DNA from: Elusimicrobiota bacterium
GTDB lineage: Bacteria; Elusimicrobiota; Elusimicrobia; UBA1565; UBA9628
Direction of reading: 5' to 3'
Assembly: GCA_033875325.1 (NCBI GenBank)
Contig: JANRKA010000111.1
Location: 249-64,248 of the forward strand
Length of the DNA stretch: 64,000 nt
Shown: piece after piece, positions 20,499-64,000 of the stretch
How the letters are laid out: each line of letters begins with the position of its first letter
Numbering within the stretch: the first letter of the stretch is position 1
Made by a program: the position numbers and the translations under genes
Notes under the pieces: model-generated
What the model saw: only the letters and a program-made list of their open reading frames with translations
Told to the model about the DNA's origin: nothing
Databases searched by the model: none

Positions 20499-22427
20499 TC
20501 AGCGGATATCCAGGGCCGGGTTGCGGTGGAAGAACCCGCTGGGCAGGAGCTGGAACCCGGTTTTGTGCGTGGGCATGACCGGCCAGTCCTCGGGTCGCGG
20601 GATGTGGGTGACCCCGAAGGTGTACCAGAGCACCACGTCCTCGCCGTCCAACGCCCGGTCGGCCTTCTGCCAGGCGGGCAGGCCCTGGTCCGCGGCGCCC
20701 TGGTTGGGGTAGCGGCCCGCGGCGTAGAGCTCGGCATCGTCGTGGCGCGTGACCCACAGGTGGTGCTCGATGAAGCGGCCTTTGCGGCGCACCGGGGAGT
20801 CCTCGAGCAGGTAGGGACGGCTGTTCTCGCCCGGGATGAGGACGAAGCCCGTGGGCTCGCCCAGCGCGTTTTTCGCGGTGGACGACAACACACGCCACTT
20901 GCGCGCCTTGGACAGGTCCATGTCGCGGCGCGCGGCGCTCTCGCGGGCGATGACGGTCTCGCGCATGACGATGGCGTTGGACAGCGGGTTGGCCTTGCCC
21001 TTGGGCGCGGAGAACACCTCGTGCTCGACGACGCGGTTGGCGGGGCCGTCCACGTCGAAGTCGAGCCGGAAGTTGAAGAAGTGCTGGTGGTGCGGGGCGG
21101 CCACGCCCGGCGCCACGAGGTGGGCGTGGTGGGCCGCGTGGTCGGCGCCGAGCTCCGACGCGGTCGCCGCTTTCACGCCTTTGGCGAGCATGATGCCGGT
21201 CAGGCCCGACTCCATGAGGAGCGCGCCGTCCTGCTTGAACACCCAGGAGAGCTGGTAGTCGTAGTTGGAGATGGTCGCCACGAAGGTCATCACCAGCTCG
21301 CGCCCGCGGCGCGACTCGGAGCGGCCGTTGATCATGTCGAGGTGCTTCCAGAGGATGCCGCCGTCGCGCTCGTAGAAGGCCACGGCCCGCTCGGCCTTGT
21401 AGGACTTGCCGAGGTCGTCGGCGAAGGTCGCGTCGCGGTACACGGCGTTGGCCGGCGCGTCGGCGCCGGGCACGAGCGGCCCGGCCATGCGGCCGATGCC
21501 GTATTCACCCTCGTCGAAGGCGTTGCGGAACGACCAGTTCGAGTCGGGGTCGCCGTAGGGCACGAGCATCTCGGAGAGCGAGGCGCGGTAGAGCACGGGG
21601 CGCACGACGCCGCCGTCCTCGAAGCCGACCTGGTAGAGGACCGGGCCCTCGCGCGGGTGCAGCGCCCAGCGGAAGCGCCAGCCCTGCCAGCGGACCTCGT
21701 GGCCGTCGAGCGTGAAGGAGGGGCCGTCCGGCTGGGAGACGACCAGCGGGCGCAGCCCCGGCCGAGCGGCCGGGACCGCGGACGGGTCGAAGTCGCCGGG
21801 CGCCGTCGAGACGGCGACGACGCCGGTGTCGATGAATTCCACGACCGCGCGTTTGTTGGCGTCGATGACAGCGACCACGCCTTCGACGGGATGGGCGTAG
21901 GCGTTGGTGTTGCCCTCCGTGGCGTAGGAGAGTCCGCGCAGCAGACGGGCGCCGGACTTCGCCTCGGCCGCCGACGTCGGACCGGGCGCCCACAGGTCCA
22001 CCCAGACCGCGTCCGGCTTCAAGCCGCGTTTCTCCATCGCGGCGCGCCAGCGCGGGTCGGCCTTCACCACGGCGGGGAACTTCTCGAACTCCTCGAGCAT
22101 GACGTTGGGCTGGGCGCCGGGGCGCGGGGTCCAGGAGGCGAGGGCCTTCGTCTCGAGGTCCACGACGGCCTCCGCCGTCTCGTTCTTGGCCCGGTCATAA
22201 ACGGTCACGAAGGCGCGGCGAGGGAACGGCCGGCCGGGCTTCCAGGCGAGGACCTCCTTCTTGGCGGGCTCATCGAGCGTGACGACGGGGAAGAACACGC
22301 CCTCCGGCAGGTCCTTGGCGGCGCGCACGGCCGCGACGGCGGCGGGCACCTCGTCGGCGTCGAGCGGGTCGAGGGGATGGACGGCGGCGGCGGCGACGGA
22401 GGCGAGCAGGAGGGCGAGGGCGTTCAT
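20499..22427 (-). CDS. Copper-containing primary amine oxidase (TPQ enzyme), periplasmic
   Basis: Signal peptide MNALALLLASVAAAA. TPQ consensus TISNYDY. Copper His ligands in HHQHFFNFRLD. ATGA overlap with the upstream GT4 gene. Confidence 0.9.
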   Translation of the reverse strand: MNALALLLASVAAAAVHPLDPLDADEVPAAVAAVRAAKDLPEGVFFPVVTLDEPAKKEVLAWKPGRPFPRRAFVTVYDRAKNETAEAVVDLETKALASWTPRPGAQPNVMLEEFEKFPAVVKADPRWRAAMEKRGLKPDAVWVDLWAPGPTSAAEAKSGARLLRGLSYATEGNTNAYAHPVEGVVAVIDANKRAVVEFIDTGVVAVSTAPGDFDPSAVPAARPGLRPLVVSQPDGPSFTLDGHEVRWQGWRFRWALHPREGPVLYQVGFEDGGVVRPVLYRASLSEMLVPYGDPDSNWSFRNAFDEGEYGIGRMAGPLVPGADAPANAVYRDATFADDLGKSYKAERAVAFYERDGGILWKHLDMINGRSESRRGRELVMTFVATISNYDYQLSWVFKQDGALLMESGLTGIMLAKGVKAATASELGADHAAHHAHLVAPGVAAPHHQHFFNFRLDFDVDGPANRVVEHEVFSAPKGKANPLSNAIVMRETVIARESAARRDMDLSKARKWRVLSSTAKNALGEPTGFVLIPGENSRPYLLEDSPVRRKGRFIEHHLWVTRHDDAELYAAGRYPNQGAADQGLPAWQKADRALDGEDVVLWYTFGVTHIPRPEDWPVMPTHKTGFQLLPSGFFHRNPALDIR

Positions 22428-23533
22428 GGGGCTCCAAGGACGGCGCGATAGGTCTCTTCGTATTCGGCGATCATGCGGCGCAGGGTGAACTTCTCGGCGA
22501 CGACGGCCGCGGCGGCGGGGCCGAGCCGGCCGCGCAGCGCGAAGTCGGTGACGAGCCGGCGCAGCGCGGCGCCCAGCGCCTTCGGGTCGTCGGGCGGGAC
22601 CAGCAGGCCGCTTTTCTCGTGCTCGACGGCCTCGGGCACGCCGTCCACGGCGGAGGCCACCACCGGCAGGCCCAGCGCCATGGCCTCGAGCAGGGCGTTG
22701 GGCAGCCCCTCCCAACGCGAGGGCAGGCAATACACGTCGAAAGCGGAGAGCCAGGACGGCACGTCGGCCCGCTCGCCCAGCAGCCAGACCGACTTCTCGA
22801 GCTGGTGTTTGCGCACCAGCCCCTCGAGTTTGCCGCGCGCCGGGCCTTCGCCCAGGATGACGCACTTGATGGGGAAACTCTTGAGGCCGGCCATCGCCTC
22901 GATGAGCGTGTCGAAGCCTTTCTGGTCGTCGAGCCGACCGACCGCGCCGACGAGGAGGTCGTTGGCGCCCAGGCGCAGCTCGAGGCGGTGTTTGGCGCGG
23001 TCCACCTTGGAGGCGGGCCAGCCCGCGGTCTCGATGCCGTTGCGGATGACCTTGACCCGCTCCCGCGAGTAACCCTGCCGCTTGACCAGGAAGTCGGCGC
23101 TGGCCTGGCATTCGGCGATGAGCAGGTCGTCGCGGTCCTTCTGCCAGCGGTCGATGGCCAAGGTCAAGGTCGAGCGCGTGCGGTAGTTGACGCGCGGCGA
23201 GCTCACGAGCTTGAAGGCGACGGAGGCCTGGGTTTTGGCCATGCGCGCGACCTGGATGGCGGAGAACATCAGGGCGTGCACGACGTCGGGGCGCTCGCGG
23301 TCGATGATGGCGGCCAAGGTCTTGGCGTCGCGCGGACGCGGGGAGGCCGCGCCGAGGGACTCCACCTTCACGCCCGCCTCGCGCAGGCGCCGGCCGTATT
23401 CGCCCTCGGGCTTGAGGCTGACGACCCCGGCCACCGTGAACGCCTTGTGGTCGAGCAAGGTCGCCAGGTTGAACAGCGTCTTCTCCGCGCCGCCGACCGT
23501 GGTGGAGGTCGAGACGAAGAGGACGCGGCTCAC
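22424..23533 (-). CDS. Glycosyltransferase family 4 (GT-B)
   Basis: MSRVLFVSTSTTVGGAEK N-terminus, C-terminal E-x7-E-like region PSRWEGLPNALLEAMALGLPVV. GTG start in a GTGA overlap with the aminotransferase stop. Confidence 0.85.
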   Translation of the reverse strand: MSRVLFVSTSTTVGGAEKTLFNLATLLDHKAFTVAGVVSLKPEGEYGRRLREAGVKVESLGAASPRPRDAKTLAAIIDRERPDVVHALMFSAIQVARMAKTQASVAFKLVSSPRVNYRTRSTLTLAIDRWQKDRDDLLIAECQASADFLVKRQGYSRERVKVIRNGIETAGWPASKVDRAKHRLELRLGANDLLVGAVGRLDDQKGFDTLIEAMAGLKSFPIKCVILGEGPARGKLEGLVRKHQLEKSVWLLGERADVPSWLSAFDVYCLPSRWEGLPNALLEAMALGLPVVASAVDGVPEAVEHEKSGLLVPPDDPKALGAALRRLVTDFALRGRLGPAAAAVVAEKFTLRRMIAEYEETYRAVLGAP

Positions 23534-24654
23534 GCGGCGAAGAAGCGCCGGACGGCGTCGATGACGCGGTCCTGGTCGGCCGGCGCCAGGTCCGGGAACA
23601 TGGGCAGGGCCAGCACCTCGGCGGACGCCTTCTCCGAGACGGGCAGGGGCACCGTCGTCGGCGCTTTGGCGTAGGCGGGCTGGCGGTGCACGGGCGCGGG
23701 GTAATACACGGCGGTCCCGACGCCGTGGCGCTTGAGGTGCTCGGCCAGGGCGTCGCGGCGCTCGCAGCGGATGACGAACAGGCAGAACACGGGCTGCGTC
23801 GCGCCCGCGCCCAGCGGCGGGAGCTTCACGGGCAGGTCCGCGAAAGCCTCGAGGTAGCGCTTGGCGACGGCGCGGCGCGCCTCGGTCCAGGCCTTGAGGC
23901 GGCGCAGCTTCACGCGCAGCACCGCGGCCTGGACCTCGTCGAGGCGCGCGTTGTGGCCGACGCGCACGTGATGGTAGGACTTGCCCGGGGCGCGGCCGCA
24001 GTTGCGCAGCTCCAGCAAGGCGTCCCGGAGCGCGTCGTCGTTGGTCGTCACCGCGCCGGCGTCGCCGGCCGCGCCGAGGTTCTTGGTCGGGTAGAAGCTG
24101 AAGCAGCCGGCGTCGCCGAGCGTGCCCGTGGCCTTGCCTTCGTGCGTCGCCAGGTGCGACTGGGCGCAGTCCTCGACGACGCGGATGCCCTTGGCGCGGG
24201 CGATGGGCAGGATGGCGGACATGTCGGCGGGCTGGCCGAAAAGATGAACGGGCACCACGGCTTTCGTCTTGGGCGTGACGGCCTTCTCGAAGGAACGGGC
24301 GTCCAGCGTCAGCGTGTCAGGGTCCACGTCGGCGAACACGGGTTTGGCGCCGAGCACGGACGCGGCGTCGGCCGTCGCCACGAAGGTGAACGAGGGCACG
24401 ACGACCTCGTCGCCGGGGCCCACGCCGCAGGCCTCCAGCGCGAGCTCGAGGGCGGAGGTCCCGGAATCCACGCCCATGGCGTGGCGGGCGCCCAGCGCCG
24501 CGGCGAACTCCGCGTCGAAGCCGGCGTTCTCGGGGCCCAGGATGAAGACGCCGGAGTCGAGCACGCGGCCGACGGCGGCCTTGACTTCGGCGCCGACCTC
24601 GGCGTTCTGTCCTTTGAGGGAGAAAAGCGGCACGGCGGTGACGGTCGCGGTCAA
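23530..24654 (-). CDS. DegT/DnrJ/EryC1/StrS-family sugar aminotransferase
   Basis: PLFSLKGQN..., DSGTSALELAL, FSFYPTKNLGAAGDAG (PLP Lys). No ATG near the N-terminus. TTG at 24654 (TTGA overlap, AGGGGG 4 nt upstream) chosen; GTG 24633 is the alternative. Confidence 0.8.
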   Translation of the reverse strand: MTATVTAVPLFSLKGQNAEVGAEVKAAVGRVLDSGVFILGPENAGFDAEFAAALGARHAMGVDSGTSALELALEACGVGPGDEVVVPSFTFVATADAASVLGAKPVFADVDPDTLTLDARSFEKAVTPKTKAVVPVHLFGQPADMSAILPIARAKGIRVVEDCAQSHLATHEGKATGTLGDAGCFSFYPTKNLGAAGDAGAVTTNDDALRDALLELRNCGRAPGKSYHHVRVGHNARLDEVQAAVLRVKLRRLKAWTEARRAVAKRYLEAFADLPVKLPPLGAGATQPVFCLFVIRCERRDALAEHLKRHGVGTAVYYPAPVHRQPAYAKAPTTVPLPVSEKASAEVLALPMFPDLAPADQDRVIDAVRRFFAA

Positions 24655-26120
24655 TAGGCCCCCTTGCCGAACAACATGACGCCGGGCGTCTTGAGGATGA
24701 TCTCCAGATCCAGACCCAGCGACCAGTGCTCGATGTAGAACAGGTCCAACCCGAAACGCTGCTCGCTGGAGACGTCGGAGCGCCCCGACACCTGCCAGAG
24801 GCCCGTGATGCCGGGCAGGATGTTCATGCGCTTCTTGGCGGTCTCGCCGAAGTCGCGCTGCAGGGCCTCCACCTCGCCGGTCGTCAACGCCAGCGGGCGC
24901 GGGCCCACGACGCTCATGTCGCCGAGCAGGACGTTGAGGAATTGGGGGAACTCGTCGAAGGAGAAGCGCCGCAGGTATTTGCCGACGCGCGTGACGCGCG
25001 GGTCGTCCTTGGCCTTGAAAAAAGCGCCCTGGTCGCCGCCGGCGGCCTTGACCTCGGCGATGCGTTTCTCGGCGTCGACGACCATGGTGCGGAATTTGAA
25101 GGCCTGGAAGGTGCGGCCTTTGTAGCCGTAACGCGCCTGGGTGAAGAGGATGGGGCCCTTGGAGTCGAGCTTGATGAGCAGGCAGATGACCAGCCACAGC
25201 GGCGCCGAAGCGGCCAGCAGCAGCACGGAGAAAACGAGGTCGAAGGTGCGTTTGGCGATGAAGTTCGCGCGGGTGAAGGAGGTGTGCTTGATGCGGTAGG
25301 CCGGGATGCCCAGGTGATGGTCCATCTGCACCTCGCCCATGCGGATCTCGAGGAGGTCGGGGACCATCTTGAAGCCCACGCCGCGCGCGTCGCAGGCCTC
25401 GGCGGCGGCCAGGATGCGCTCGTGGCTGTCCTTGGTGCGCAGCAGCAGGAGCTCGTACCACGGCCGCGACTCCAGCAGCCGCTCGAGCTCGGCCTGGGGC
25501 GGAAGGGCGTCGAGCTCCTCGACGGCGGCGCCGGGGTGGCGGGCGAGGATGCGCTCGCGCAGCACGGGCGCGACCGAGCCGCCGCCCACCAGCAGCACGG
25601 GTTTGGCGGCCTCCATCGAGGCCAGGAAGTCGTCGAGCTTGAGCGCCAGCCACTGGGTGAAGCTCAGCAGGAGCAGGCCGATGGGGAACACCGCGGCGAG
25701 CATCACGCGCGAGTAGGCCAGGCGCTCGTAGAGGAACGCGGCCACCAGGGTCGTTCCCGCCCCCAGGGCGCACGCCCGCACGATCTGCAGGAAGCGGTCG
25801 GCGCCCGTCATCCAGGAGGCGGTGTAGAGGCGGGCGGAATAGAGGCAGAACAGCCAGATGGGAACGGCGCCCGACAGCAGCGCCTGGTATTTCTCCCACA
25901 ACGCGGGCTCGCCCGAGGGAGGGATTTGCGCGACGAACCAGCCCCACTCGAAGCGCGCCCAGAACGCCAGGCGGTAGGCCAGGGCCACGGCGGCGGCGTC
26001 GAAGACCAGGTGCAGGGTCGTGCGCAGGGCGTGGCGCAGCCAGGGAGGCAGGCCGACGGCCGAAGACGCGGCGGGCGCCGTGGGTGCTTCGCGGCGCGGA
26101 CGGGCGGCGCGCGTGCTCAT
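24651..26120 (-). CDS. Polyprenyl-phosphate glycosyl-1-phosphate transferase (WbaP/EpsB-type priming enzyme)
   Basis: Multi-TM N-terminus, Rossmann-like middle, bacterial sugar transferase domain KRTFDLVFS...DPRVTRVGKYLRRFSFDEFPQFLNVLLGDMSVVGPRP. Confidence 0.9.
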   Translation of the reverse strand: MSTRAARPRREAPTAPAASSAVGLPPWLRHALRTTLHLVFDAAAVALAYRLAFWARFEWGWFVAQIPPSGEPALWEKYQALLSGAVPIWLFCLYSARLYTASWMTGADRFLQIVRACALGAGTTLVAAFLYERLAYSRVMLAAVFPIGLLLLSFTQWLALKLDDFLASMEAAKPVLLVGGGSVAPVLRERILARHPGAAVEELDALPPQAELERLLESRPWYELLLLRTKDSHERILAAAEACDARGVGFKMVPDLLEIRMGEVQMDHHLGIPAYRIKHTSFTRANFIAKRTFDLVFSVLLLAASAPLWLVICLLIKLDSKGPILFTQARYGYKGRTFQAFKFRTMVVDAEKRIAEVKAAGGDQGAFFKAKDDPRVTRVGKYLRRFSFDEFPQFLNVLLGDMSVVGPRPLALTTGEVEALQRDFGETAKKRMNILPGITGLWQVSGRSDVSSEQRFGLDLFYIEHWSLGLDLEIILKTPGVMLFGKGAY

Positions 26121-26130
26121 CTGGTCCCCG

Positions 26131-26139
26131 ATTATATCA
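26131..26139 (-). promoter_or_regulatory. Extended -10 TGaTATAAT, 10 nt upstream of the priming-transferase ATG; part of an 18-nt cassette repeated at 40243-40260
   Basis: Minus strand GTGAATTGATATAATCGGGGACCAGATG. The TGA is also the stop of the upstream radical SAM gene. Confidence 0.4.
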
Positions 26140-27669
26140 ATTCACCGTCGGGGCACGGGAGACGAGGCGGCGGCGCCGCACGAGGGCGAAAAGCCGCTGC
26201 TCGATGACGGTGTCCGAGCGGCCCGCCCGGAAGTTGCGCCAGGCGCGCAGGAGCGCGGCGGGGTGCAGGAGGTAGTGGAGCCCGTAGAACACGCACAGCC
26301 CCAGGACCCGGTAGAAGGCGATCTCCCGGGCGCCTACGTTCTCGCAGTAGTTGGTGGGCTGGCTGACGTCCATGAAGGTCATGAGGCTTTCGAAATAGGG
26401 GCGGTCCATGCGCGGGATGGAGCCCGTTTTGCGCAGGTAGTCGTAGAGCTCGGAGCCGTGGTAGGGCGAATAGGTATAGAGGCCGCAGTCGTCCACGCCC
26501 GACAGCGCGAAACGCGCCGCGGCCCAGACGGTCTTGAGCATGTCGGCGCGCGTTTCGCGCGGGAAGCCGATGATGAGGTTGCACTTCACGAAGATGCCCT
26601 CGCGCTTGGCGTGACGGATGGACTCGTAGAGGCGGGGCAGGTTCACCTTCTTCTTGATGTCCTCGAGCACGCGCTCCGAGCCGCTTTCGGGCGCGTAGGT
26701 CATGTTCGTGCAGCCGGTGGCCGCCATCGCGGCGAGCACCTCGGCGTCCAACGCCTCGGAACGGGTGCCGCTGGGCAGCTGCCAGGTGAAGCGCAAGCCG
26801 CGGTGCTCGATGGCGCGGCAGAAATCCATCACCCAGGACTTCTTGACGATGGCGGTGAGGTCGTAGAAGTCTATGTTGTCGGCGCGGTAGGCCTTCTGGT
26901 AATGCTCGATCTCGTCGAGCACCCGCTCGGGGTCGCGCATGACGTAGCGCGTGGTCCACATCAGCGGATTGGAGCAGAAGGTGCATTGATAGGGGCAGCC
27001 GCGCGTGGCCACCAGCGGCATGGAGCGGCCGCGTTCGACGCCGTGTCCCTCGCCCACGCGGAAGTACGGCTCCAGGTCGAAGAGGTGCCAGGCCGGCAGG
27101 GGCAGGTCGTCGGGCGCGCGCAGGCGCGCGCGCGGGGGGTTGGCGACGGGCGCTCCGCCCTCGCCGCGGTAATGCAGGCCGGCGATGGCCGCCGTCGAGC
27201 CGCGGCCGTCGAGTGCGTCCGCGAACTCCACCATCGTCCGCTCGCCCTCGCCGGATGCCACGAAGTCCACCTGCGGCGAGTCGCGCAGGATGTATTCGGC
27301 GCACGCCGTGGCGTGTTCGCCGCCGACGATGATGGGCGCGTCCGGGAAGCGGGCGCGCAGGGCGGCGATGACGCCTTCGATGTGGGGCCAATCCTGCGAG
27401 AACATCGTGGTGACCCCGATGGCGTCCGGGCGCGCCCGCGCGCGCGCCGCGATTTCTTCCGACGAAAGGCCGCGGTAGCGCACGCCCGGGCCGTAGGAGA
27501 CGCCGATGCGGTCGATGGCCTCTCCCAGGCCGTCGATGCACTCGACCTCGTGGCCCGCCGCGAGCAGGCTCGACGCGAGATAGGCGATGGACAGCGGCAT
27601 GGTCACGGGCGCGCTGCCGCTGGCGGCGGAGAAGACCGACGGAGGCCGCACGAGCAGGAGGCGGGCCAC
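26137..27669 (-). CDS. Cobalamin-binding-domain (class B type) radical SAM enzyme
   Basis: N-terminal B12-binding-like Rossmann (LLLVRPP..., DAIGVTTMF, IIVGGEHAT). RGCPYQCTFCSN CX3CX2C motif. GTG 27669 shares one base with the upstream TAG stop; ATG 27600 is the alternative. Confidence 0.8.
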   Translation of the reverse strand: MARLLLVRPPSVFSAASGSAPVTMPLSIAYLASSLLAAGHEVECIDGLGEAIDRIGVSYGPGVRYRGLSSEEIAARARARPDAIGVTTMFSQDWPHIEGVIAALRARFPDAPIIVGGEHATACAEYILRDSPQVDFVASGEGERTMVEFADALDGRGSTAAIAGLHYRGEGGAPVANPPRARLRAPDDLPLPAWHLFDLEPYFRVGEGHGVERGRSMPLVATRGCPYQCTFCSNPLMWTTRYVMRDPERVLDEIEHYQKAYRADNIDFYDLTAIVKKSWVMDFCRAIEHRGLRFTWQLPSGTRSEALDAEVLAAMAATGCTNMTYAPESGSERVLEDIKKKVNLPRLYESIRHAKREGIFVKCNLIIGFPRETRADMLKTVWAAARFALSGVDDCGLYTYSPYHGSELYDYLRKTGSIPRMDRPYFESLMTFMDVSQPTNYCENVGAREIAFYRVLGLCVFYGLHYLLHPAALLRAWRNFRAGRSDTVIEQRLFALVRRRRLVSRAPTVN

Positions 27670-29347: not shown

Positions 29348-29388
29348 GGGTCCATTGTAGCCTTTTGCCCGGCCCGCTCGTCGGGCTT

Positions 29389-29397
29389 TGATAGAAT
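29389..29397 (+). promoter_or_regulatory. Extended -10 TGaTAGAAT, 5 nt upstream of ATG 29403
   Basis: ctttgatagaatgcgccATG. The divergent TACAAT is on the minus strand at 29359-29354. Confidence 0.4.
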
Positions 29398-29402
29398 GCG
29401 CC

Positions 29403-30908: not shown

Positions 30909-30915
30909 CGGCGCG

Positions 30916-31470: not shown

Positions 31471-31472
31471 GC

Positions 31473-57322: not shown

Positions 57323-58555
57323 TCAGGAGACCCGGTGCTTGAGCTTCCATTCGCCGTTATGGCGCTCCCATAGATGGGGGGAGCGGAACTTGTCCACCGT
57401 GGCGTGGAACTCCTTCTCGTCCATGCCGAGGTACTCGAGGATCTCCTTGTAGTACTTCTTGGGGAACTCGCCGTCGAAGCGGTGCACGAGCGCGACGGCC
57501 TCCTCGCGGTCGATGTGGCCGGAGCGGACCTCCTGGGCGGCGTCGTAGGTGGCGCGGCCGATGCCGTATTTCACGTAGGTCGTCCAGTAATGGAAGCCGT
57601 CGATGCGGTCGTCGAGGCTGTTGTACTTGGAGTAGGTGCCCTCGGTGCGCTCGGGGTTGGCCTCGAAGCCGGTGTGCTCGACGGCGTAGTAGTAGCTCTC
57701 CTGCGGGATCCACTTGATGTAGTAGCCGAGGTAGTGCACCTTCACGCCCAGTTCCTCGAGCTGCGCGTCGTCGGCGGGCAGGTAGGGCTGCAGGTCGGCG
57801 GGCTCGAGCTTGTGTTTCTCGATGAGCTCGGTCAGCGACACGCCGCCCAGGTGGATCTTGTCCTTGCTGGCCTTGGTGAAGTAGTTCTTGGCGCGAAGAG
57901 GGCTCTTGTTGTCGGAGATGGGGTTGCCGTATTCGGCCTCGTTCTCGCCGAAGAACACGAGCGGCACCTTGTGGCGCAGCGCCATGTGCGGGGCGAGCGT
58001 CTTCTGCCCGATCATGAAGGGCTGGAAGGGGTTGAGCAGGTTCTGCACGGCCAGGCGGGTCAGCAGGCGGTGGACCTTTCCGTTGGGGGTGAAGAGGCTG
58101 TTGTCGCAGCCCCCGACGTGGATCCAGTTCTGGAAGTTCTTCCAGCCGATCTCGGTGTAGAGGTGCGGCGCCCAGGTGATGGTCAGCGGGTGCATGCCGT
58201 ACTTGTATTTGAGGACGTGCGAGGCGCGGGCGCTGTCCTTGCCGCCGGAGCCGGGCACGATGCAGTCGTAGGAGCCGTCGTGCCGGCGGTACTGGTCGCA
58301 GAGGTCCTTGAGCTCCTTCTCGCGCTGCTTCCAATCGATGACGTCGCGTTTGACCTCGGCGAAGCGGCAGGCGTCGCACACGCCTTCCTCGTCGATGCGG
58401 ATGGTCTCCTTCTTCGACTCCGCGGTGTGGTAGTACTCCACGCAGGAATTGGGGCGCTGGTTGGAGATGACGCAGCGTTTGCAGAACTTGACCTCGGCGG
58501 GGAGGCCGAAAAGGGCCTCGGCCTTGCGGGTCTTGGCGGCGGCGGGGTTGGTCAT
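57323..58555 (-). CDS. N-acetyl sugar amidotransferase (WbuX/PseA-like PP-loop enzyme)
   Basis: Zn-ribbon CKRC...CDAC; PP-loop VPGSGGKDS. ATGA overlap with the hisH-like gene. Confidence 0.85.
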   Translation of the reverse strand: MTNPAAAKTRKAEALFGLPAEVKFCKRCVISNQRPNSCVEYYHTAESKKETIRIDEEGVCDACRFAEVKRDVIDWKQREKELKDLCDQYRRHDGSYDCIVPGSGGKDSARASHVLKYKYGMHPLTITWAPHLYTEIGWKNFQNWIHVGGCDNSLFTPNGKVHRLLTRLAVQNLLNPFQPFMIGQKTLAPHMALRHKVPLVFFGENEAEYGNPISDNKSPLRAKNYFTKASKDKIHLGGVSLTELIEKHKLEPADLQPYLPADDAQLEELGVKVHYLGYYIKWIPQESYYYAVEHTGFEANPERTEGTYSKYNSLDDRIDGFHYWTTYVKYGIGRATYDAAQEVRSGHIDREEAVALVHRFDGEFPKKYYKEILEYLGMDEKEFHATVDKFRSPHLWERHNGEWKLKHRVS

Positions 58556-59187
58556 GGGTTCTCCAGGAAGCGTCTGAGTATGTCGAGTCCGGCGGGCCCG
58601 CTCTTCTCGGGGTGGAACTGGCAGCCGGTGATGTTGCCCCGGCGCAGGGCGGCGCAGAAGGAGCCGGCGCCGTAGCCGCAGTCGGCGAGGCGGTCGGCTT
58701 TCTCGGCGGGCACGGCGGCGTAAGAATGCACGAAATAGAACTCCGCTCCCTCCGCGGTGCCGGCCAGCGCGGTCTTCGGCCACGGCGAGGCCGGAGAGAG
58801 CGCGCTCCAGCCCACGTGCGGCAGCTTCACGCCGTCGGTGCCCGCGACCAGCTTCTCCACGGAGCCGGGCACCAGGCCCAGGCCCTCGTGCTCGCCGAAT
58901 TCGGAGCTGCGGTCCATGAGCAACTGCATGCCCAGGCAGATGCCCAGCAGCGGGCGCCCGGACTTGGCGTAGGCGCGCAGCGGCTCGACCAAGCCCCGCT
59001 CGCGCAGCCCCTTCATGCCGTCGCCGAAGGCGCCCACGCCGGGCAGGAGCACCCGCGGCGCGCCCACCACGTCGGCGGGGTCGGCGGAGATGTCCGGCTC
59101 GCCGCCGACGGCGCGCACGGCGCGGGCCACGCTGAGCAGGTTGCCCAGGCCGTAGTCCACGATGACGACGCGTTTGGAGCCGCTCAT
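58552..59187 (-). CDS. HisH-like glutamine amidotransferase subunit (WbuY-type)
   Basis: GVGAFG, GICLGMQLL (Cys nucleophile), HSY, QFHPEKS. Confidence 0.9.
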   Translation of the reverse strand: MSGSKRVVIVDYGLGNLLSVARAVRAVGGEPDISADPADVVGAPRVLLPGVGAFGDGMKGLRERGLVEPLRAYAKSGRPLLGICLGMQLLMDRSSEFGEHEGLGLVPGSVEKLVAGTDGVKLPHVGWSALSPASPWPKTALAGTAEGAEFYFVHSYAAVPAEKADRLADCGYGAGSFCAALRRGNITGCQFHPEKSGPAGLDILRRFLENP

Positions 59188-59972
59188 GCGAGGGGGGCGG
59201 CCGCCGGCGGGCGACGCACGGGGACGCCGGCCGACAGCAGCGTCTCCTTGAGCTCGCGCAGGCCGCATTTCTTGAAATGCAGGATGGAGGCGACCGACAC
59301 CGCGTCGGCGCGGCCTTCCTGCACCGCCGCCAGCACGTGTTCGGCCTTGCCCGCCCCGCCGCAGGCGATGACGGGGATGGAGACCGCGGTGGCGAGCTTG
59401 GCGGTCAGCTCCAGGTCGAAGCCCTTGAGCGTGCCCTCCTTGTCCACGGAGGTGACCAGGATCTCGCCCGCGCCCAGGTCGGCGGCCTTGCGCGCCCACT
59501 CGTAGGCGTCCACCCCGGTCTTCTCGCGCCCGTTGTCGGTGAGCGCCTCCCAGCGTCCGGGGCCCTGGGACTTGGCCTCGATGGAGACCACGATGCACTG
59601 GGAGCCGAAGCTGCGGGCGGCCTCGCGGATGAATTCGGGGTTGGCGATGGCGGCGGTGTTGACCGCGACCTTGTCGGCGCCGGCGCGCAGCAGCTTGTAC
59701 ACGTCGTCGAGCTTGCGCACGCCCCCGCCCACCGTCAGCGGGATGAAGATGTCGGCCGCGGCGCGCTCCACGATGTCGAGCAGGTTGTTGCGCCCGTAGA
59801 GGCTGGCCACGATGTCCATGTAGAGCAGTTCATCGGCGCCTTCTTCGTAGTAGCGCCGGGCGTGCTCCGCGGGGTCGCCCACGATGCGCAGCCCCTCCAG
59901 GTGGACCCCCTTCACGATGTTGGGGCCCTTGATGTCCAGGCGGGGGATGATGCGGATGTTGGTCCGGGACAT
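59184..59972 (-). CDS. HisF-like cyclase subunit (WbuZ-type)
   Basis: RIIPRLDIKG, TVGGGV, VAVNTAA, ACGGAG. ATG 59972 chosen; GTG 59978 is an alternative start. Confidence 0.9.
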   Translation of the reverse strand: MSRTNIRIIPRLDIKGPNIVKGVHLEGLRIVGDPAEHARRYYEEGADELLYMDIVASLYGRNNLLDIVERAAADIFIPLTVGGGVRKLDDVYKLLRAGADKVAVNTAAIANPEFIREAARSFGSQCIVVSIEAKSQGPGRWEALTDNGREKTGVDAYEWARKAADLGAGEILVTSVDKEGTLKGFDLELTAKLATAVSIPVIACGGAGKAEHVLAAVQEGRADAVSVASILHFKKCGLRELKETLLSAGVPVRRPPAAAPLA

Positions 59973-60017
59973 GTTCACTTATTGAACATCTTATCAAGTG
60001 GGGGGAGAAGGAGTCAA
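59973..60017 (-). promoter_or_regulatory. Promoter TTGACT-18-TGaTAAGAT plus candidate operator site S3 (GTTCA-CTTAT-TGAACAT, 59973-59989)
   Basis: Minus strand: TTGACT 60017-60012, TAAGAT 59993-59988, then GTTCAATAA, then GTG 59978 / ATG 59972. Confidence 0.5.
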
Positions 60018-60031
60018 ACTCATCCGGCGGC

Positions 60032-60082
60032 TTGACGGGGCCGGTACGATTTCCATATACTGTCCGTTCAGAGATTGAACAT
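60032..60082 (+). promoter_or_regulatory. Promoter TTGACG-18-TATACT plus candidate operator site S4 (GTTCA-GAGAT-TGAACAT, 60066-60082) overlapping ATG 60081
   Basis: TTGACG 60032-60037, TATACT 60056-60061. The inverted repeat covers the expected transcription start and the start codon. Confidence 0.5.
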
Positions 60083-60752
60083 GTCGTCCTCTCCTCATAT
60101 TAAGGCGTTCATCCAGGCCCGCACGTCCTCCCGGCGTTTCCCCGGCAAGGTGCTCACCCCTTTCCGTGGCCGCCCCCTCATCGACTGGGTGTGGGACGCC
60201 GCCGCGAAGGCGGTCCCCCGCTCGGCCATCGTGTTGGCCACCAGCACGGACGCCTCGGACGACGCCCTCGCCGCCCATGCCCTTTCCGCGGGCGTGACGG
60301 TGTTCCGTGGTCCCCTGGACGACGTGTTCGCCCGCTTCTCGCTTTGCCTCAAGGCACACCCCTGCGACTGGTTCTTCCGGGTCTGCGCCGATTCCCCGCT
60401 TCTGGACGGCGGCCTTCTGTCTTGGGCCGCGTCCCAGGCCGGGCCCGGCGTGGACCTCGTCACCAACGTCGCCCCGCGCTCCTTCCCGAAGGGACAGAGC
60501 GTGGAGCTGATCCGCGCCACGGCCTTCGCCGCGGTGGACGCCGCCGCGCTGACGCCGGAGCAGCGCGAGCACGCGACCTTGGCTTTCTACCAGGACGGGC
60601 GTTGGAAGGTGAAGAACCTCGACTCCGGCCGCCCCGAGTGGGCCAAGCTCTCGCTGACCGTGGACTCGCCCGAGGACCTGCGCCGCCTGGAGTCCGAGTA
60701 CCCGGCCGGCAGGCCGCTGCCGGTCTGGACTCCCGCCCGGAGCGCCGCGTGA
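60081..60752 (+). CDS. SpsF/PseF-like cytidylyltransferase-family protein
   Basis: AFIQARTSSRRFPGKVL, LATSTDASDD, ADSPLLD blocks of the SpsF-type CTP-transferase family. Confidence 0.75.
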   Translation: MSSSPHIKAFIQARTSSRRFPGKVLTPFRGRPLIDWVWDAAAKAVPRSAIVLATSTDASDDALAAHALSAGVTVFRGPLDDVFARFSLCLKAHPCDWFFRVCADSPLLDGGLLSWAASQAGPGVDLVTNVAPRSFPKGQSVELIRATAFAAVDAAALTPEQREHATLAFYQDGRWKVKNLDSGRPEWAKLSLTVDSPEDLRRLESEYPAGRPLPVWTPARSAA

Positions 60753-61762
60753 GCGCCAAGACCGCGACGCTCGGCGCCGCCGTCGTCGGCCTGGGCGTGG
60801 GCGAGGCGCATGCGAAGACTTTGGCGGCCGACCCGCGTTGCCGCCTCGTCGCCGTGTGCGACCGTGACGCGGCCCGGGCCGGCGCGGTGGGCGGCGCCCT
60901 CGGGGGCGTGAAGAACGTCGCCTTCGAGGCGATCCTCTCCGACCCCGCCATCTCCCTGGTGTCCATCGCCTCCTTCGACGACGACCACTACGCCCAGGCC
61001 TTGGCCGCGCTCAAGGCGGGCAAACACGTGTTCGTCGAGAAGCCGCTGTGCCGCTCGCTCCCGGAACTGAAGGCCCTCGCCGCCGCCCGCTCCGCCAAGG
61101 GCCTGCATCTGCGCTCCAACCTCGTGCTGCGCGCCGCGCCGTTGTGGCGTTGGCTGCTCGACGCGGTGAGGAACGGCGAGCTGGGGACCGTGTACGCCGT
61201 GGACGGCGACTATCTCTACGGCCGCCTGGAGAAGATGACCGACGGCTGGCGCAAGGACGTGCCCGATTACTCCGTGATGCAGGGCGGGGGCGTGCATCTC
61301 GTGGATCTCATGCTCGCCATCGCCGGAGAGAGACCGCTCAGCGTCTCCGCCTCCTCCTCGCGCATCGCCGCTGCCGGCACCGCCTTCCGCTACGACGACT
61401 TCCACGCCGCCGAATGGCGCTTCCCCTCCGGCCTCGTGGGCCGCGTCACCGCCAACTTCGGCTGCGTGCACCGTCACCAGCACGCCGTGCGCGTCTTCGG
61501 GACGAAGGCGACCTTCATCTACGACGATCAGGGAGCGCGGCTGCATCTCAGCCGCGACCCCGATGCCGCACCCAAACGGATCGACCTCGCGGCCAAGACG
61601 GCCGACAAGGGCGTCTTGCTGCCCGACCTCGTCACGGCCATCGCCGCCGGCGCGGATCCGGCGCCGGCGGCGAGACTTGAATACGACCTCATCGCGGCCT
61701 GTCTGGCCGCGGACGCGGCGCGCGGCCTCGACCGGCGCGTCGCCCTGGAGCCCATCGAATGA
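60749..61762 (+). CDS. Gfo/Idh/MocA-family NAD(P)-dependent oxidoreductase
   Basis: GTGA overlap. AAVVGLGVGEAH, VFVEKPL. Confidence 0.85.
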   Translation: MSAKTATLGAAVVGLGVGEAHAKTLAADPRCRLVAVCDRDAARAGAVGGALGGVKNVAFEAILSDPAISLVSIASFDDDHYAQALAALKAGKHVFVEKPLCRSLPELKALAAARSAKGLHLRSNLVLRAAPLWRWLLDAVRNGELGTVYAVDGDYLYGRLEKMTDGWRKDVPDYSVMQGGGVHLVDLMLAIAGERPLSVSASSSRIAAAGTAFRYDDFHAAEWRFPSGLVGRVTANFGCVHRHQHAVRVFGTKATFIYDDQGARLHLSRDPDAAPKRIDLAAKTADKGVLLPDLVTAIAAGADPAPAARLEYDLIAACLAADAARGLDRRVALEPIE

Positions 61763-62925
61763 GCACGACCACCGTCCGTGAAATCCCCTTCGCCCGCCCT
61801 TGGATCACCCCCGAGGACAAGCAGGCCGTTTTGAAGGTCCTCGACGGGCACGTGCTCACGCACGGCCCGGAGTGCAAGAACTTCGAGGCGGAGTTCTCGG
61901 CCTTCCTGGGCCCCGACGCCCACTCGGTGTCCATGAGCTCCTGCATGGGGGCCCTTCACGTCGCCTACCTGCACTTCGGCATCGGCAAGGGCGACGAGGT
62001 CATCGTGCCCGCGCAGACGCACGCGGCCACCGTGCACGCCGTCGAGTGGGTCGGCGCCACGCCCGTGTTCGCCGACTGCGACCCGGCCACCGGCAACATG
62101 CTGCCCGAAGCCATCGAGAAGCTGGTCACGCCGAAAACCAAGGCGATCTCCGTGGTCCACTTCGTCGGCTTCCCCTGCAAGATGGACGCCATCATGAAGA
62201 TCGCCGAGAGACACAAGCTCAAGGTCGTCGAGGACTGCGCCATCGCCCTGGGCGCGCGCCTGGACGGCCGCCACGTCGGCCTGTGGGGCGACGCCGCGAC
62301 CTTCTCGTTCTACCCGGTCAAACACATCACCACCGGCGAAGGCGGCATGTTCGTCAGCCGCCACAAGGAGGTCGCCGAGGCGGTCGCGCGCCTGCGCGCC
62401 TTCGGCGTGGACCGCACGCACACCGAGCGCGCGGTGCCCGGCTTCTACGACGTGCCCTCGTTGGGCTTGAACTACCGCATGAGCGAGATGCAGGCCGCGC
62501 TCGGCCGCTCGCAGCTCTCGCGCATCACGGAGAACCTCAAGCGCCGCAAGGACAACTTCGAGGCGCTCAAGAAGGAGTTGGCGGACTTCAAGGGGGGGCG
62601 CCTGCTCGATGAGCGCGACCCGCGCATGGTCACCAGCCCCTACTGCGGCTGCCTCATCCTCAACGGGTCGCTCGCGGCCAAGCGCAACGACTTCGTCGCC
62701 AAGCTCAACGCGTTGGGCATCGGCACCAGCATCTACTACCCGCAGCCGGTGCCGCGCATGAAGTACTATCGGACCAAATACGGCTACGACGCGGCGAAAT
62801 ACCCGCGCGCGGCCGAGATCAGCGACAACGGCGTCGCGCTGCCTTGCGGCACTCACCTCGTCCCCGCGGACATGCGGGTCGTGGCCGACGCCGTGCGCCG
62901 CGCCGCCACGGAGGTGCTCGGATGA
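61759..62925 (+). CDS. DegT/DnrJ/EryC1/StrS-family sugar aminotransferase (LegC/PseC-like)
   Basis: ATGA overlap. FSFYPVKHITTGEGG (PLP Lys), VPAQTHAAT. Confidence 0.9.
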   Translation: MSTTTVREIPFARPWITPEDKQAVLKVLDGHVLTHGPECKNFEAEFSAFLGPDAHSVSMSSCMGALHVAYLHFGIGKGDEVIVPAQTHAATVHAVEWVGATPVFADCDPATGNMLPEAIEKLVTPKTKAISVVHFVGFPCKMDAIMKIAERHKLKVVEDCAIALGARLDGRHVGLWGDAATFSFYPVKHITTGEGGMFVSRHKEVAEAVARLRAFGVDRTHTERAVPGFYDVPSLGLNYRMSEMQAALGRSQLSRITENLKRRKDNFEALKKELADFKGGRLLDERDPRMVTSPYCGCLILNGSLAAKRNDFVAKLNALGIGTSIYYPQPVPRMKYYRTKYGYDAAKYPRAAEISDNGVALPCGTHLVPADMRVVADAVRRAATEVLG

Positions 62926-63968
62926 GCCCGGTTCAGGACTTGAAAGGACGCAAGGTCGCCCTCATCGGAGGGGCCGGCTTCATCGGACACAACCTCGCGC
63001 TCAGCCTTCAGGCGCGCGGCGCGGAGGTCGAGATCGTCGACAGCCTGCAGGTCAACAACCTCCTGTCCTTCGCTTCGGAGGGCTCCGCCGCCCCCGACCG
63101 CGAGATGTACATGAAGATGCTCAACCAGCGCCTCGACCTGCTGCGCGCCGCGAAGATCAACATGCACCCCGTGGACGCGCGTGACTATCACGCGCTCTCG
63201 CGCATCCTGGTGCAGATAAAGCCGCAGGCCATCGTGCACCTGGCGGCCATCTCCCACGCGGGCAAGTCCAACAAGGACCCTTTCAGCACCTTCGACCACA
63301 GCCTGCGCACGCTGGAGAACGCGCTCGACTACGCGCGCGGCGGCGGCGTGGACCAGTTCGTGTTCCTGTCCTCGAGCATGGCCTACGGCAACTTCAAGAC
63401 CGCCGAGGTCACCGAGGAGCATCCGCTCGAGCCCATCGGCATCTACGGCGCCCTCAAGCTCGCCGGCGAGAAGATGGTCATCGCCTACAACCAGGTCTTC
63501 GGGCTGCCCTACACCATCCTGCGGCCGTCGGCCCTCTACGGACAGCGCTGCGTCAGCCGCCGCGTGGCCCAGGTCTACATCGAGACCGCGCTCAAGGGCG
63601 GGACCTTGCGCATGGACGGCGACGGCTCCGAGCGCCTGGACTTCACCTACATCGACGATCTCACCGACGGCATCGGCCTGTGCCTGGCCAACCCCAAGGC
63701 GCGCGGCGAGATCTTCAACCTGACTTACGGCGCGGCGCGCTCCATCAAGGAGCTTGGCGAGATTGTGCAGAAACACTTCCCGGGCACCAAGATCGAGAGC
63801 GTGCCTCGCGACGCGCTGATGCCGTTCCGCGGCACGCTCAACGTGGACAAGGCGCGCCGCCTCATCGGCTACGCGCCCAAGAACCCCATCGACGTCGGCA
63901 TCCCCAAATACATCGAGTGGTACCGCTCGCTGACCAACACGCCGGCCCCGAAGCCCGTCAGCGCGTGA
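62922..63968 (+). CDS. NAD-dependent sugar-nucleotide epimerase/dehydratase (SDR)
   Basis: ATGA overlap. ALIGGAGFIGHNL, YGALKLAGE (YxxxK). Confidence 0.85.
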   Translation: MSPVQDLKGRKVALIGGAGFIGHNLALSLQARGAEVEIVDSLQVNNLLSFASEGSAAPDREMYMKMLNQRLDLLRAAKINMHPVDARDYHALSRILVQIKPQAIVHLAAISHAGKSNKDPFSTFDHSLRTLENALDYARGGGVDQFVFLSSSMAYGNFKTAEVTEEHPLEPIGIYGALKLAGEKMVIAYNQVFGLPYTILRPSALYGQRCVSRRVAQVYIETALKGGTLRMDGDGSERLDFTYIDDLTDGIGLCLANPKARGEIFNLTYGAARSIKELGEIVQKHFPGTKIESVPRDALMPFRGTLNVDKARRLIGYAPKNPIDVGIPKYIEWYRSLTNTPAPKPVSA

Positions 63969-64000
63969 GCGGCGGCGTCACCGCCGACGCCTGGCTGACC
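63965..64000 (+). CDS. Possible start of a further operon gene (partial, runs off the window)
   Basis: GTG 63965 in another GTGA overlap. Only 12 codons are visible. Confidence 0.2.
   Translation, partial: MSGGVTADAWLT

Follow-up and report, generated by a model that had tools for sequence, protein, structure and literature searches.

Several described systems bear on the gene region reported here. Yersinia pseudotuberculosis makes yersiniose A with ddhA to ddhD and YerE/YerF, Campylobacter jejuni and Legionella pneumophila have legionaminic acid (Leg) pathways (Ptm/Leg and the Leg5Am7Ac O-antigen, respectively), and in the PglK and Wzk routes of Campylobacter N-glycosylation and Helicobacter O-antigen synthesis, a fused exporter of the ABCB type works with a priming phosphotransferase and without Wzx or Wzy. 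The protein O-glycan of Tannerella forsythia carries a dideoxyhexose together with a terminal amidinated, glyceroyl-type nonulosonic acid, Pse5Am7Gra (PMC5420450), and YerE-like branching modules beside genes for CDP (cytidine diphosphate)-deoxy-keto sugars are a recognized class with more than 200 predicted members (PMC12247030). Here we analyzed 64,000 nucleotides of an Elusimicrobiota contig (JANRKA010000111.1, positions 249 to 64,248 of the forward strand; assembly GCA_033875325.1), referred to below as the window, and describe its region 20499 to 64000. In this stretch of more than 43 kb, a free-living Elusimicrobiota bacterium with a high-GC genome carries a gene island for building cell-surface sugars that are heavily decorated. 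The island is a patchwork of known, separable pathway modules and not a new kind of system. Our preferred reading, to which we give a probability of roughly 65%, is that this region plus at least 8 kb beyond it forms a native, hypervariable cell-surface glycan island of evolutionarily separable modules, with one or several glycoconjugates as its product.

Raw lists of open reading frames (ORFs) are useless at about 70% G+C, and genes were called by codon usage with a caller trained on long, obviously coding ORFs. This gave 54 genes in the window. The original prediction, made from the sequence before any database search, had described a contiguous surface-glycan region of more than 43 kb, and this region indeed holds 37 complete genes (g17 to g53) and the first 12 codons of g54, mostly with 4-nt overlaps or less than 60 nt between neighbors (Table 1). 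Families were assigned by hidden Markov model (HMM) scans against Pfam and NCBIfam with equivalog cutoffs, by sequence matches in PDB and, for g24 and g42, by AlphaFold models compared with Foldseek. Nearly every family call in the region passes the HMM checks, and most of the predicted identities are upheld: a priming phosphotransferase (g20), a glycosyltransferase of family GT4 (g18), three DegT enzymes (g19, g30, and g52), an ATP-binding cassette (ABC) exporter (g34), a CDP-3,6-dideoxyhexose trio above equivalog cutoffs (g32, g31, and g30) with a thiamine diphosphate (ThDP) enzyme (g29), two fusions of NeuB and CTP_transf_3 domains (g39 and g46), a legionaminic-acid-like set with an amidotransferase (g43 to g49), two B12-binding radical S-adenosylmethionine (SAM) enzymes (g21 and g28), a PhyH dioxygenase (g41), a 2-hydroxyacid dehydrogenase (g38), and a copper amine oxidase (g17). 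Some of the counts had to be corrected, as we found three GT2 enzymes (g22, g33, and g40) where four had been listed and four class-I SAM methyltransferases (g23, g27, g36, and g37) where five had been listed; the GT-C-like transferases, given in the plural, come down to one protein, g24, with a fold match of weak scores. None of the 37 genes matched Wzx (Polysacc_synt), Wzy_C, Wzz, or ligase families, in agreement with the prediction, and from the gene content a methylated, amidinated, branched-chain glycan is indeed predicted.

On its left side the region starts at 20499 with the g17 stop codon, and on its right side it is limited by the edge of the window and not by the end of the locus. 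Within these limits, the gene map shows at least five transcription units in both orientations: a minus-strand unit of 22 genes running from g49 to g28 without a gap above 60 nt, a similarly tightly packed minus-strand unit of seven genes from g23 to g17, the small units g26-g27, g25, and g24, and the divergent cassette that begins at g50. Genes identical to those of the window occur in run DRR729081, but exact-protein searches for a longer source contig yielded 6.6-kb Logan contigs at most. For the continuation to the right we used NI882, the closest relative (92% identity in g15, on the 3.1-Mb contig CBDIQC010000001.1). Beyond g53 it encodes, in this order, a GNAT protein at the position of g54, a third NeuB, a methyltransferase, an acyl carrier protein (ACP), another methyltransferase, an AAC(3)-like/DUF4910 protein, and a GT-B-like protein of 579 amino acids with a weak match to the BFO_1060 family (E value, 2e-4). 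From this run of genes, the island reaches at least 8 kb past the end of the window.

The island is native to its host genome and was not recently imported. Its G+C content at third codon positions (GC3), averaged per gene, is 0.926, compared with 0.918 in the flanks, and neither a tRNA gene nor an Rfam element was found in scans of the window; it follows from these three results that the DNA is not foreign. No meaningful repeats flank the g21-to-g24 segment discussed below either, and none of the signs of a foreign island that were looked for was thus found. A scan of positions 19500 to 36000 gave 13 terminator-like sites against an expected 8.7 ± 4, hence no enrichment, and a single promoter-like match, upstream of g15.

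Evidence for separable modules came from tblastn comparisons of all window proteins with loci fetched from relatives. In NI882, g21 to g24 are missing with a clean junction, and three overlapping loci on its contig are otherwise collinear from g53 to g15. In CP096137.1, the complete genome (a 3.8-Mb chromosome; loci L150 and L162) of a more distant relative with 77% identity in g15, the nonulosonic-acid module is located at 375890 to 396933 (about 0.38 Mb), whereas the start core is found near 3.2 Mb, about 1 Mb away. In LC012, the modules are found on three contigs and in another order, with a different CDP-sugar module (56 to 58% identity). Taken together, the g21-to-g24 indel, the separation in CP096137.1, and the rearrangement in LC012 identify the locus as a mosaic and not an indivisible unit. 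Its parts are a start core (g20 to g18), an accessory cassette (g21 to g24), a regulator and tailoring block, a module for a dideoxyhexose with a YerE-like enzyme and an exporter, a legionaminic-acid-like module, and a divergent cassette (g50 to g53). Some parts are widely retained: the segment from g48 to g39 and, within it, the dioxygenase gene g41 are kept in four relatives, and g28 is kept in NI882, LC012, and CP096137.1. Functions that the island lacks are encoded at equivalent variable sites of relatives, which harbor Wzy_C proteins (L241 and L166), a 950-amino-acid Wzx-like Polysacc_synt protein (L166), and a PMT_2 protein of the GT-C type (L150). It is of note that many genes of CP096137.1, including its homolog of SprA, are split into several ORFs, which suggests that this assembly carries uncorrected indel errors and that truncated genes in it should be read cautiously.

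The dideoxyhexose module is closest to the yersiniose A pathway of Y. pseudotuberculosis. As in that system, genes with equivalog-level matches to DdhA, DdhB, and DdhC (g32, g31, and g30) are followed by a ThDP enzyme, g29, which belongs to the operon of g30, with a 4-nt overlap between the two, and hence adjoins the genes for a CDP-4-keto-3,6-dideoxyhexose. The best acetolactate synthase models score only 380 to 430 bits with g29, against cutoffs of 538 to 1084, and its best PDB match by far is 5ahk (431 bits; next match, 297 bits), an entry named acetolactate synthase II that we take to be the YerE homolog of Pseudomonas protegens. Judged by its sequence, g29 is a three-domain ThDP enzyme distinct from true acetolactate synthases and is predicted to be a YerE-like carboligase. 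The module differs from that of Yersinia in that the locus contains no DdhD (E3) reductase and no clear YerF reductase and in that it sits in an island rich in nonulosonic-acid genes. The exporter gene of this module, g34, encodes a fused half-transporter whose PDB matches are ABCB and ABCC exporters, unlike the Wzm/Wzt and KpsMT pairs, which consist of a separate ABC-2 permease and ATPase. Together with the priming enzyme g20, the cytoplasmic glycosyltransferases, and the lack of Wzx and Wzy, this recalls the PglK/Wzk routes; however, neither PglB nor WaaL is present in the window, and g34 resembles ABCB exporters generally and not PglK specifically.

The legionaminic-acid-like module compares best with the Leg pathways of C. 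jejuni and L. pneumophila, with which it shares NeuD/LegH-like, NeuC/LegG-like, and NeuB/LegI-like enzymes, a protein of PtmE-like architecture, a putative domain for CMP (cytidine monophosphate)-sugar synthesis, and the WbuX/HisH/HisF proteins. The last three, g47, g48, and g49, adjoin with 4-nt overlaps and constitute a full WbuX/WbuY/WbuZ acetamidino set. The NeuD, NeuC, and NeuB_NnaB models matched by g44 to g46 do not tell Leg from Neu enzymes, and the PtmE type, for which no NCBIfam equivalog model exists, is tentatively assigned to g43 by its domain architecture. In contrast to the known pathways, the synthase and the CMP-synthetase are fused here, the equivalents of LegB and LegC lie outside the operon, a PhyH dioxygenase, a GT2-nucleotidyltransferase fusion, and the GT-B family protein g42 are inserted, and neither Maf nor Wzm/Wzt is encoded. 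In LC012, the orthologs of g44 and g43 are separated by an additional DegT gene. In g46, g39, and g50, the CTP_transf_3 domains score above the Pfam cutoff, and with the PseF equivalog they reach 26 to 140 bits, below its cutoff of 206.

The two fusion proteins have opposite domain orders. A CTP_transf_3-NeuB fusion as in g46 is found in about 50 of the best 150 cluster representatives, and we therefore rejected the idea that such fusions are rare. The g39 fusion was present, among the relatives compared, only in the two closest, NI882 and LC012. Its counterparts in two others (L162, positions 10001 to 11050, from CP096137.1, and L163, positions 10001 to 11014, from another metagenome-assembled genome [MAG]) are plain NeuB proteins that end at residue 349, and the gene order shifts exactly where NeuB ends, so that the fusion coincides with a recombination breakpoint between modules. 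The protein encoded by g42 had no match in Pfam or NCBIfam, and its 55 homologs are all unnamed or hypothetical; its model (predicted local distance difference test [pLDDT] score of 94) is most similar in Foldseek to UDP-GlcNAc 2-epimerases and OGT-like proteins (E value, 1e-8), which points to a GT-B fold. BLASTP showed no similarity of g42 to the 579-amino-acid protein of NI882, nor between g42 and g35, and a paralogous relationship of g35 and g42 was thus discarded.

The divergent cassette g50 to g53 has a distribution of its own. It is kept in 57 to 67 of 73 loci (L167 to L239) from many phyla and classes, including Myxococcota, Chloroflexota, Alphaproteobacteria, Planctomycetota, and Bacteroidota, with 57 to 70% identity in g53, and in these loci it is often followed by a WbuX-like amidotransferase and rarely by NeuB.

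The accessory cassette resembles the GtrA/GtrB/GT-C and ArnC/ArnT modification systems in that g22 is a full-length homolog of GtrB and ArnC (266 bits over residues 3 to 307 with GtrB, PDB 5ekp; 176 bits with ArnC) and g24 is a putative GT-C protein with an N-terminal DD motif. It differs from them in lacking a GtrA-like flippase and in adding a B12-binding radical SAM enzyme and a methyltransferase, an arrangement that recurs in L240, where a g24 homolog adjoins a B12-radical SAM gene, a GT2 gene, and a methyltransferase gene. In L241, from a further MAG, a g24 homolog is found beside the conserved start core. No sequence match to g24 was obtained in Pfam, NCBIfam, or PDB, and the sole organism name among the just 21 homologs detected is Elusimicrobia. 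As single-sequence PDB searches were uninformative for g15 and g24, a family profile was used for the former and structure prediction for the latter. With the g24 model (pLDDT, 86), the top 15 Foldseek matches are all GT-C enzymes at weak scores (E values of 1e-3 to 6e-2; TM scores of 0.25 to 0.41), the foremost being ArnT, Pmt4, PglB, STT3, and AftB (E values of 1e-3 or above; TM scores of 0.34 to 0.41), and the family has a near-invariant D41-D42-W43 (DDW) motif close to the N terminus. These weak matches suggest that g24 may have a GT-C fold, in a family restricted so far to Elusimicrobia.

The start core is the stable part of the locus. The order g20-g19-g18, preceding g15, is syntenic in about 25 Elusimicrobiota MAGs, and the best PDB matches of g20 are WbaP structures. 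A putative promoter-like element, TTGATATAAT, precedes g20 and is kept in NI882 in the form TTGnTATAAT, directly after the g25 ortholog and before the g20 start codon. The amine oxidase gene g17 has a 4-nt overlap with g18. Only in the closest genomes (L084, L150, L137, and L241) is it inserted at this place, between g18 and the gene for the large outer membrane protein, g15, so that the insertion is specific to a clade, and in 80 loci with homologs it is almost never beside glycan genes. For these reasons, the inclusion of the copper amine oxidase in the original list stands as to its identity, and a role in glycan synthesis is doubtful, with hitch-hiking as the most likely explanation of its presence. 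As a separate observation, three distant MAGs, one titled Blastocatellales and two titled Heliomicrobium/Heliobacteriaceae, share one order and orientation of the genes for a g23-like methyltransferase, a g22-like GT2 enzyme, and a copper amine oxidase (L010, L014, and L050, at about 7800 to 11900 in each). The trio has about 30% identity, with the oxidases 50 to 53% identical to g17, and hints at a recurrent association between GtrB-type GT2 enzymes and amine oxidases.

Tannerella glycoproteins are secreted by a type IX system that contains SprA, and with the T. forsythia O-glycosylation locus the island shares several features: its NeuB genes are likewise accompanied by an amidotransferase (g47 to g49), a 2-hydroxyacid dehydrogenase (g38), and methyltransferases, the 579-amino-acid protein of NI882 weakly matches the BFO_1060 transferase family, and a SprA homolog, g15, is its neighbor. 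The differences are the phylum, a CDP-3,6-dideoxy route with ThDP-dependent branching and not digitoxose, and an ABC exporter instead of Wzx. Each pathway of the island thus has precedents, as does the pairing of an amidinated nonulosonic acid and a dideoxyhexose in one system, and the description of these pathways as not usually found together was overstated, given the Tannerella O-glycan (PMC5420450), the more than 200 YerE-like members (PMC12247030), and the frequency of the synthase fusions. What is new locally, apart from the phylum, are the unannotated families of g24 and g42 and the presence of B12-radical SAM enzymes within a glycan cassette. The observation behind the original prediction is confirmed, and its interpretation is partly supported.

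With gene identities given by sequence and fold and the order of steps by inference, the modules could work together as follows. In the cytoplasm, g32, g31, and g30 would produce CDP-4-keto-3,6-dideoxyhexose, to which the YerE-like g29 would add a C-acyl branch to give a yersiniose-type sugar. A CMP-legionaminic-acid-like nonulosonic acid would be made by g43 to g46, with g47 to g49 turning one of its N-acetyl groups into an acetamidino group, and g39, as well as g50 to g53 with the third NeuB found downstream in the relative, may supply further CMP-activated acidic sugars. Tailoring would include methylation by g27, g36, and g37 and possibly by g21 and g28, hydroxylation by g41, and perhaps addition of a glycerate-type acyl group via g38. 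Assembly is predicted to start with the priming of undecaprenyl phosphate by g20 and to continue with the lengthening of the lipid-linked oligosaccharide by g18, g33, g40, g35, and g42, after which the PglK/MsbA-type g34 would flip the lipid-linked glycan to the periplasmic face in place of Wzx. There, g24 may decorate it with a sugar that g22 has loaded on undecaprenyl phosphate, and a ligase or oligosaccharyltransferase encoded outside the window would make the final transfer to lipid A-core or protein.

Several points weigh against our reading. The E3 reductase DdhD, which RfbH normally needs, is not apparent, as no Fer2, FAD_binding_6, or NAD_binding_1 domain was detected among the scanned window genes, although it could lie elsewhere in the genome. 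LegB and LegC are not part of the g43-to-g49 operon and must be borrowed from g53, g52, g26, or g19, all of which are below equivalog cutoffs (for instance, 92 bits for g53 with LegB, cutoff 475, and 206 bits for g52 with LegC, cutoff 420). No ligase, oligosaccharyltransferase (STT3 and Wzy_C), or polymerase match was obtained in the window, and the window gene map contains no small four-helix membrane protein gene of the GtrA type to go with g22 and g24. The GT-C assignment of g24 itself hangs on the weak Foldseek scores (E value, 1e-3; TM score, about 0.4). Lastly, given the separation of modules in CP096137.1, these may serve different glycoconjugates.

This last point leads to the strongest, though less likely, alternative, namely, that adjacent loci function independently, with the core g20 to g18 making a lineage-wide glycolipid or anchor and the nonulosonic-acid and dideoxyhexose modules serving another glycoconjugate, for example in protein O-glycosylation or a capsule. 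In about 25 MAGs the core does occur beside g15 with none of the other modules closer than 10 kb, g20 is preceded by its own promoter-like element, and CP096137.1 carries the nonulosonic-acid module elsewhere. However, the window encodes a single polyprenyl-phosphate priming enzyme, and in this alternative, the nonulosonic-acid and CDP-sugar modules would be without an initiating enzyme here; moreover, the exporter g34 is placed among the variable modules.

It is rather unlikely that all of the roughly 40 genes form one integrated pathway for a single, extremely tailored glycan in an indivisible locus, as the original prediction of a "super-locus" had it. The tight packing, the presence of one priming enzyme and one exporter in the window, and the near-perfect collinearity with NI882 over g53 to g30 and g28 to g15 are what such a pathway would lead one to expect. 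Against it stand the indel between close relatives, the distance between modules in CP096137.1, their rearrangement in LC012, the transcription units in both orientations, and the three NeuB synthases and three cytidylyltransferases, which suggest several products. The prediction had named scattering of its sub-clusters among close relatives, without co-expression, as speaking against it; the absence of g21 to g24 from NI882, the distance in CP096137.1, and the rearrangement in LC012 bear out half of this.

An improbable extension of the island model, by analogy with other systems, is that the core trio and the attached hypervariable island are functionally coupled to the neighboring SprA homolog g15, the glycan being placed on its cargo or serving as a surface anchor. 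The secreted g15 protein of 1874 amino acids contains a linker rich in Pro and Ala, and its last residues are ...TLTFQF. When 15 orthologs were combined in a profile, this matched only Flavobacterium johnsoniae SprA (6h3i and 6h3j; E value, 1e-26), and the score with TIGR04189 (SprA/Sov) is 161 bits (E value, 2.6e-47), below the cutoff of 200. Its relatives occur only in Elusimicrobiota MAGs and throughout them, whereas the reviews that we retrieved confine type IX secretion to the Bacteroidota or the Fibrobacterota-Chlorobiota-Bacteroidota (FCB) group. In Porphyromonas, anionic lipopolysaccharide (A-LPS) genes are needed for cargo anchoring, and the neighborhood of g15 with a priming transferase, a DegT enzyme, and a GT4 enzyme recalls these genes. 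However, no PorV, PorU, GldKLMN, or cargo bearing a C-terminal domain (CTD) is encoded among the flanking genes in the window, and since the synteny around g15 reaches unrelated housekeeping genes on its other side (g7 to g5), the proximity of g15 and the core may be incidental. If the coupling were true, Elusimicrobiota would have a type-IX-like outer membrane translocon outside the group thought to confine type IX secretion, in parallel to the A-LPS anchor and the O-glycosylated type IX cargo of Porphyromonas and Tannerella. Among the papers searched, none connects Elusimicrobia with nonulosonic acids or with type IX secretion. Among the other flanking genes, g14 (13591 to 14367, minus strand) is CpaB/RcpC-like (Pfam RcpC, 55 bits), with a one-base overlap of its start and the g15 stop, and the g14-g15 pair is kept in many relatives. 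Between this operon and a DUF-type secreted protein lies g13 (11601 to 13583, plus strand; 660 amino acids), which relatives do not conserve. Its C-terminal caspase domain (Peptidase_C14) scores 88 bits with the NCBIfam EACC1-associated caspase model, which has a cutoff of 140.

The gene set also resembles the flagellin glycosylation island of Campylobacter, and several NeuB paralogs, a PseA/WbuX-type amidotransferase, a PtmE-like enzyme, many methyltransferases, and the nearby g14 would suit an island for the glycosylation of flagellin or pilin like those of Campylobacter and Aeromonas. We rejected this reading as very improbable: no Maf (MAF_flag10) or flagellin match was found in the scanned window genes or the NI882 extension, pilin and Wzy_C families likewise had no match in the window, and the WbaP-type primer, the GtrB/GT-C pair, and the ABC flippase indicate lipid-linked assembly, which Maf-type flagellin glycosylation does not use. 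The least probable reading, and also rejected, is that the genes form a secondary-metabolite cluster whose natural product is glycosylated or resembles an aminoglycoside. Antibiotic sugar pathways commonly include B12-radical SAM methylases, a TylF O-methyltransferase, and YerE-like and DegT enzymes, as found here, and also the AAC(3)-like acetyltransferase, ACP, and AMP-binding enzyme types of the NI882 extension. However, the window contains no polyketide synthase, nonribosomal peptide synthetase, or cyclitol core enzyme, and it has hallmarks of envelope glycans in its priming enzyme, GtrB/GT-C pair, nonulosonic-acid pathway, MarR_EPS-like regulator, and LIC12162-like transferase.

Table 1. 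Genes and elements of the glycan island and the adjoining g15, in window coordinates (SDR, short-chain dehydrogenase/reductase; TMD-NBD, transmembrane and nucleotide-binding domains)
Feature	Position	Strand	Evidence
g15, secreted SprA (type IX secretion translocon) homolog, 1874 aa	14367-19991	-	Family profile; TIGR04189
g17, primary-amine (copper) oxidase, hydrophobic N terminus	20499-22427	-	Pfam Cu_amine_oxid 462 bits; NCBIfam primary-amine oxidase 789 bits (cutoff 651)
g18, GT4 glycosyltransferase of start core	22424-23533	-	Pfam Glyco_trans_1_4, Glycos_transf_1
g19, DegT-family sugar aminotransferase of start core	23530-24654	-	Pfam DegT 405 bits; below every NCBIfam equivalog cutoff
g20, large WbaP-type polyprenyl-phosphate hexose-1-phosphate transferase (priming)	24651-26120	-	Pfam Bac_transf 214 bits; TIGR03025 348 bits (cutoff 296)
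TTGATATAAT element, putative, promoter-like	26131-26140	-	10 nt upstream of g20 ATG; read directly
g21, B12-binding radical SAM enzyme (putative methylase)	26137-27669	-	Pfam B12-binding, Radical_SAM; below all NCBIfam cutoffs
g22, GtrB/ArnC-type polyprenyl-phosphate glycosyltransferase, GT2 with C-terminal membrane segment	27669-28622	-	Pfam GT2
g23, SAM methyltransferase	28619-29347	-	Pfam Methyltransf_23
g24, polytopic membrane protein, putative GT-C fold	29403-30908	+	AlphaFold, Foldseek
g25, MarR-type regulator	30916-31470	-	Pfam HTH_24, MarR; TIGR04176 MarR_EPS 53 bits (below cutoff 88)
g26, SDR sugar epimerase, dehydratase or reductase	31514-32497	+	Pfam Epimerase 174 bits
g27, FkbM-family methyltransferase	32494-33393	+	Pfam Methyltransf_21; TIGR01444 88 bits (cutoff 38)
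g28, second B12-binding radical SAM enzyme	33406-35313	-	Pfam matches
g29, ThDP enzyme, predicted YerE-like branching carboligase	35374-37089	-	TPP_enzyme N, M, C domains
g30, RfbH/DdhC CDP-6-deoxy-4-hexulose 3-dehydrase (DegT)	37086-38411	-	NCBIfam RfbH NF011936 658 bits (cutoff 423)
g31, CDP-glucose 4,6-dehydratase (DdhB)	38408-39508	-	TIGR02622 424 bits (cutoff 278)
g32, glucose-1-phosphate cytidylyltransferase (DdhA)	39472-40239	-	TIGR02623 424 bits (cutoff 300)
g33, GT2 glycosyltransferase	40256-41263	-	Pfam Glycos_transf_2
g34, fused TMD-NBD ABC exporter, ABCB/MsbA/PglK type	41260-42918	-	Pfam ABC_membrane, ABC_tran
g35, LIC12162-like putative transferase	42953-44791	-	TIGR04331 E 1.6e-30, 106 bits (below cutoff 225); no Pfam match
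g36, SAM methyltransferase	44792-45682	-	Pfam Methyltransf_23, Methyltransf_11
g37, TylF-type O-methyltransferase	45723-46394	-	Pfam TylF 102 bits
g38, D-2-hydroxyacid dehydrogenase, phosphoglycerate dehydrogenase-like	46391-47356	-	Pfam 2-Hacid_dh_C 175 bits; below all NCBIfam cutoffs
g39, NeuB-family synthase fused to C-terminal cytidylyltransferase	47340-49145	-	Pfam NeuB, SAF, CTP_transf_3; NeuB_NnaB 330 bits (below cutoff 400)
g40, GT2 and MobA-like nucleotidyltransferase fusion	49142-50488	-	Pfam matches
g41, PhyH-family Fe(II)/2-oxoglutarate dioxygenase	50494-51324	-	Pfam PhyH 42 bits (cutoff 22)
g42, uncharacterized family, GT-B fold, putative transferase	51321-52772	-	AlphaFold pLDDT 94; Foldseek
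g43, CBS and sugar-1-phosphate nucleotidyltransferase, PtmE-like architecture	52769-53845	-	Pfam CBS, NTP_transferase
g44, NeuD/PglD-type N-acetyltransferase (LegH-like)	53847-54473	-	TIGR03570 212 bits (cutoff 161)
g45, NeuC-type hydrolyzing 2-epimerase (LegG-like)	54470-55546	-	TIGR03568 326 bits (cutoff 236)
g46, cytidylyltransferase fused to NeuB/LegI-type synthase	55603-57315	-	NeuB_NnaB 449 bits (cutoff 400)
g47, WbuX/PseA-type N-acetyl sugar amidotransferase	57323-58555	-	TIGR03573 383 bits (cutoff 203)
g48, HisH-like glutamine amidotransferase subunit	58552-59187	-	Pfam GATase
g49, HisF-like cyclase subunit	59184-59978	-	Pfam His_biosynth 243 bits
Divergent intergenic region between g49 and g50 operons, 96 nt	59979-60074		TTGACG-18 nt-TATACT motif facing g50; read directly
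g50, CTP_transf_3 cytidylyltransferase	60075-60752	+	Pfam; below all NCBIfam cutoffs
g51, Gfo/Idh/MocA sugar dehydrogenase	60749-61762	+	Pfam
g52, DegT aminotransferase	61759-62925	+	Pfam 366 bits; PseC 286 bits, LegC 206 bits (both below cutoff)
g53, SDR dehydratase or epimerase	62922-63968	+	Pfam Epimerase
g54, first 12 codons, cut by window edge	63965-64000	+	Gene call

In summary, this work gives a first gene-level picture of how surface glycans may be built in an uncultured, free-living Elusimicrobiota lineage, based on the evidence for three nonulosonic-acid synthases (the third in NI882), an acetamidino system, and a route to a branched 3,6-dideoxyhexose. It leaves present views on the working of such loci unchanged. 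Two unannotated protein families, a membrane protein with a possible GT-C fold and a GT-B-fold protein, are brought to light, and the YerE-like enzyme and the two B12-radical SAM enzymes are candidate catalysts for the C-branching and C-methylation of sugars. Among the relatives, a stable core contrasts with parts that are swapped, as one would expect where phages or predators exert pressure on surface structures.

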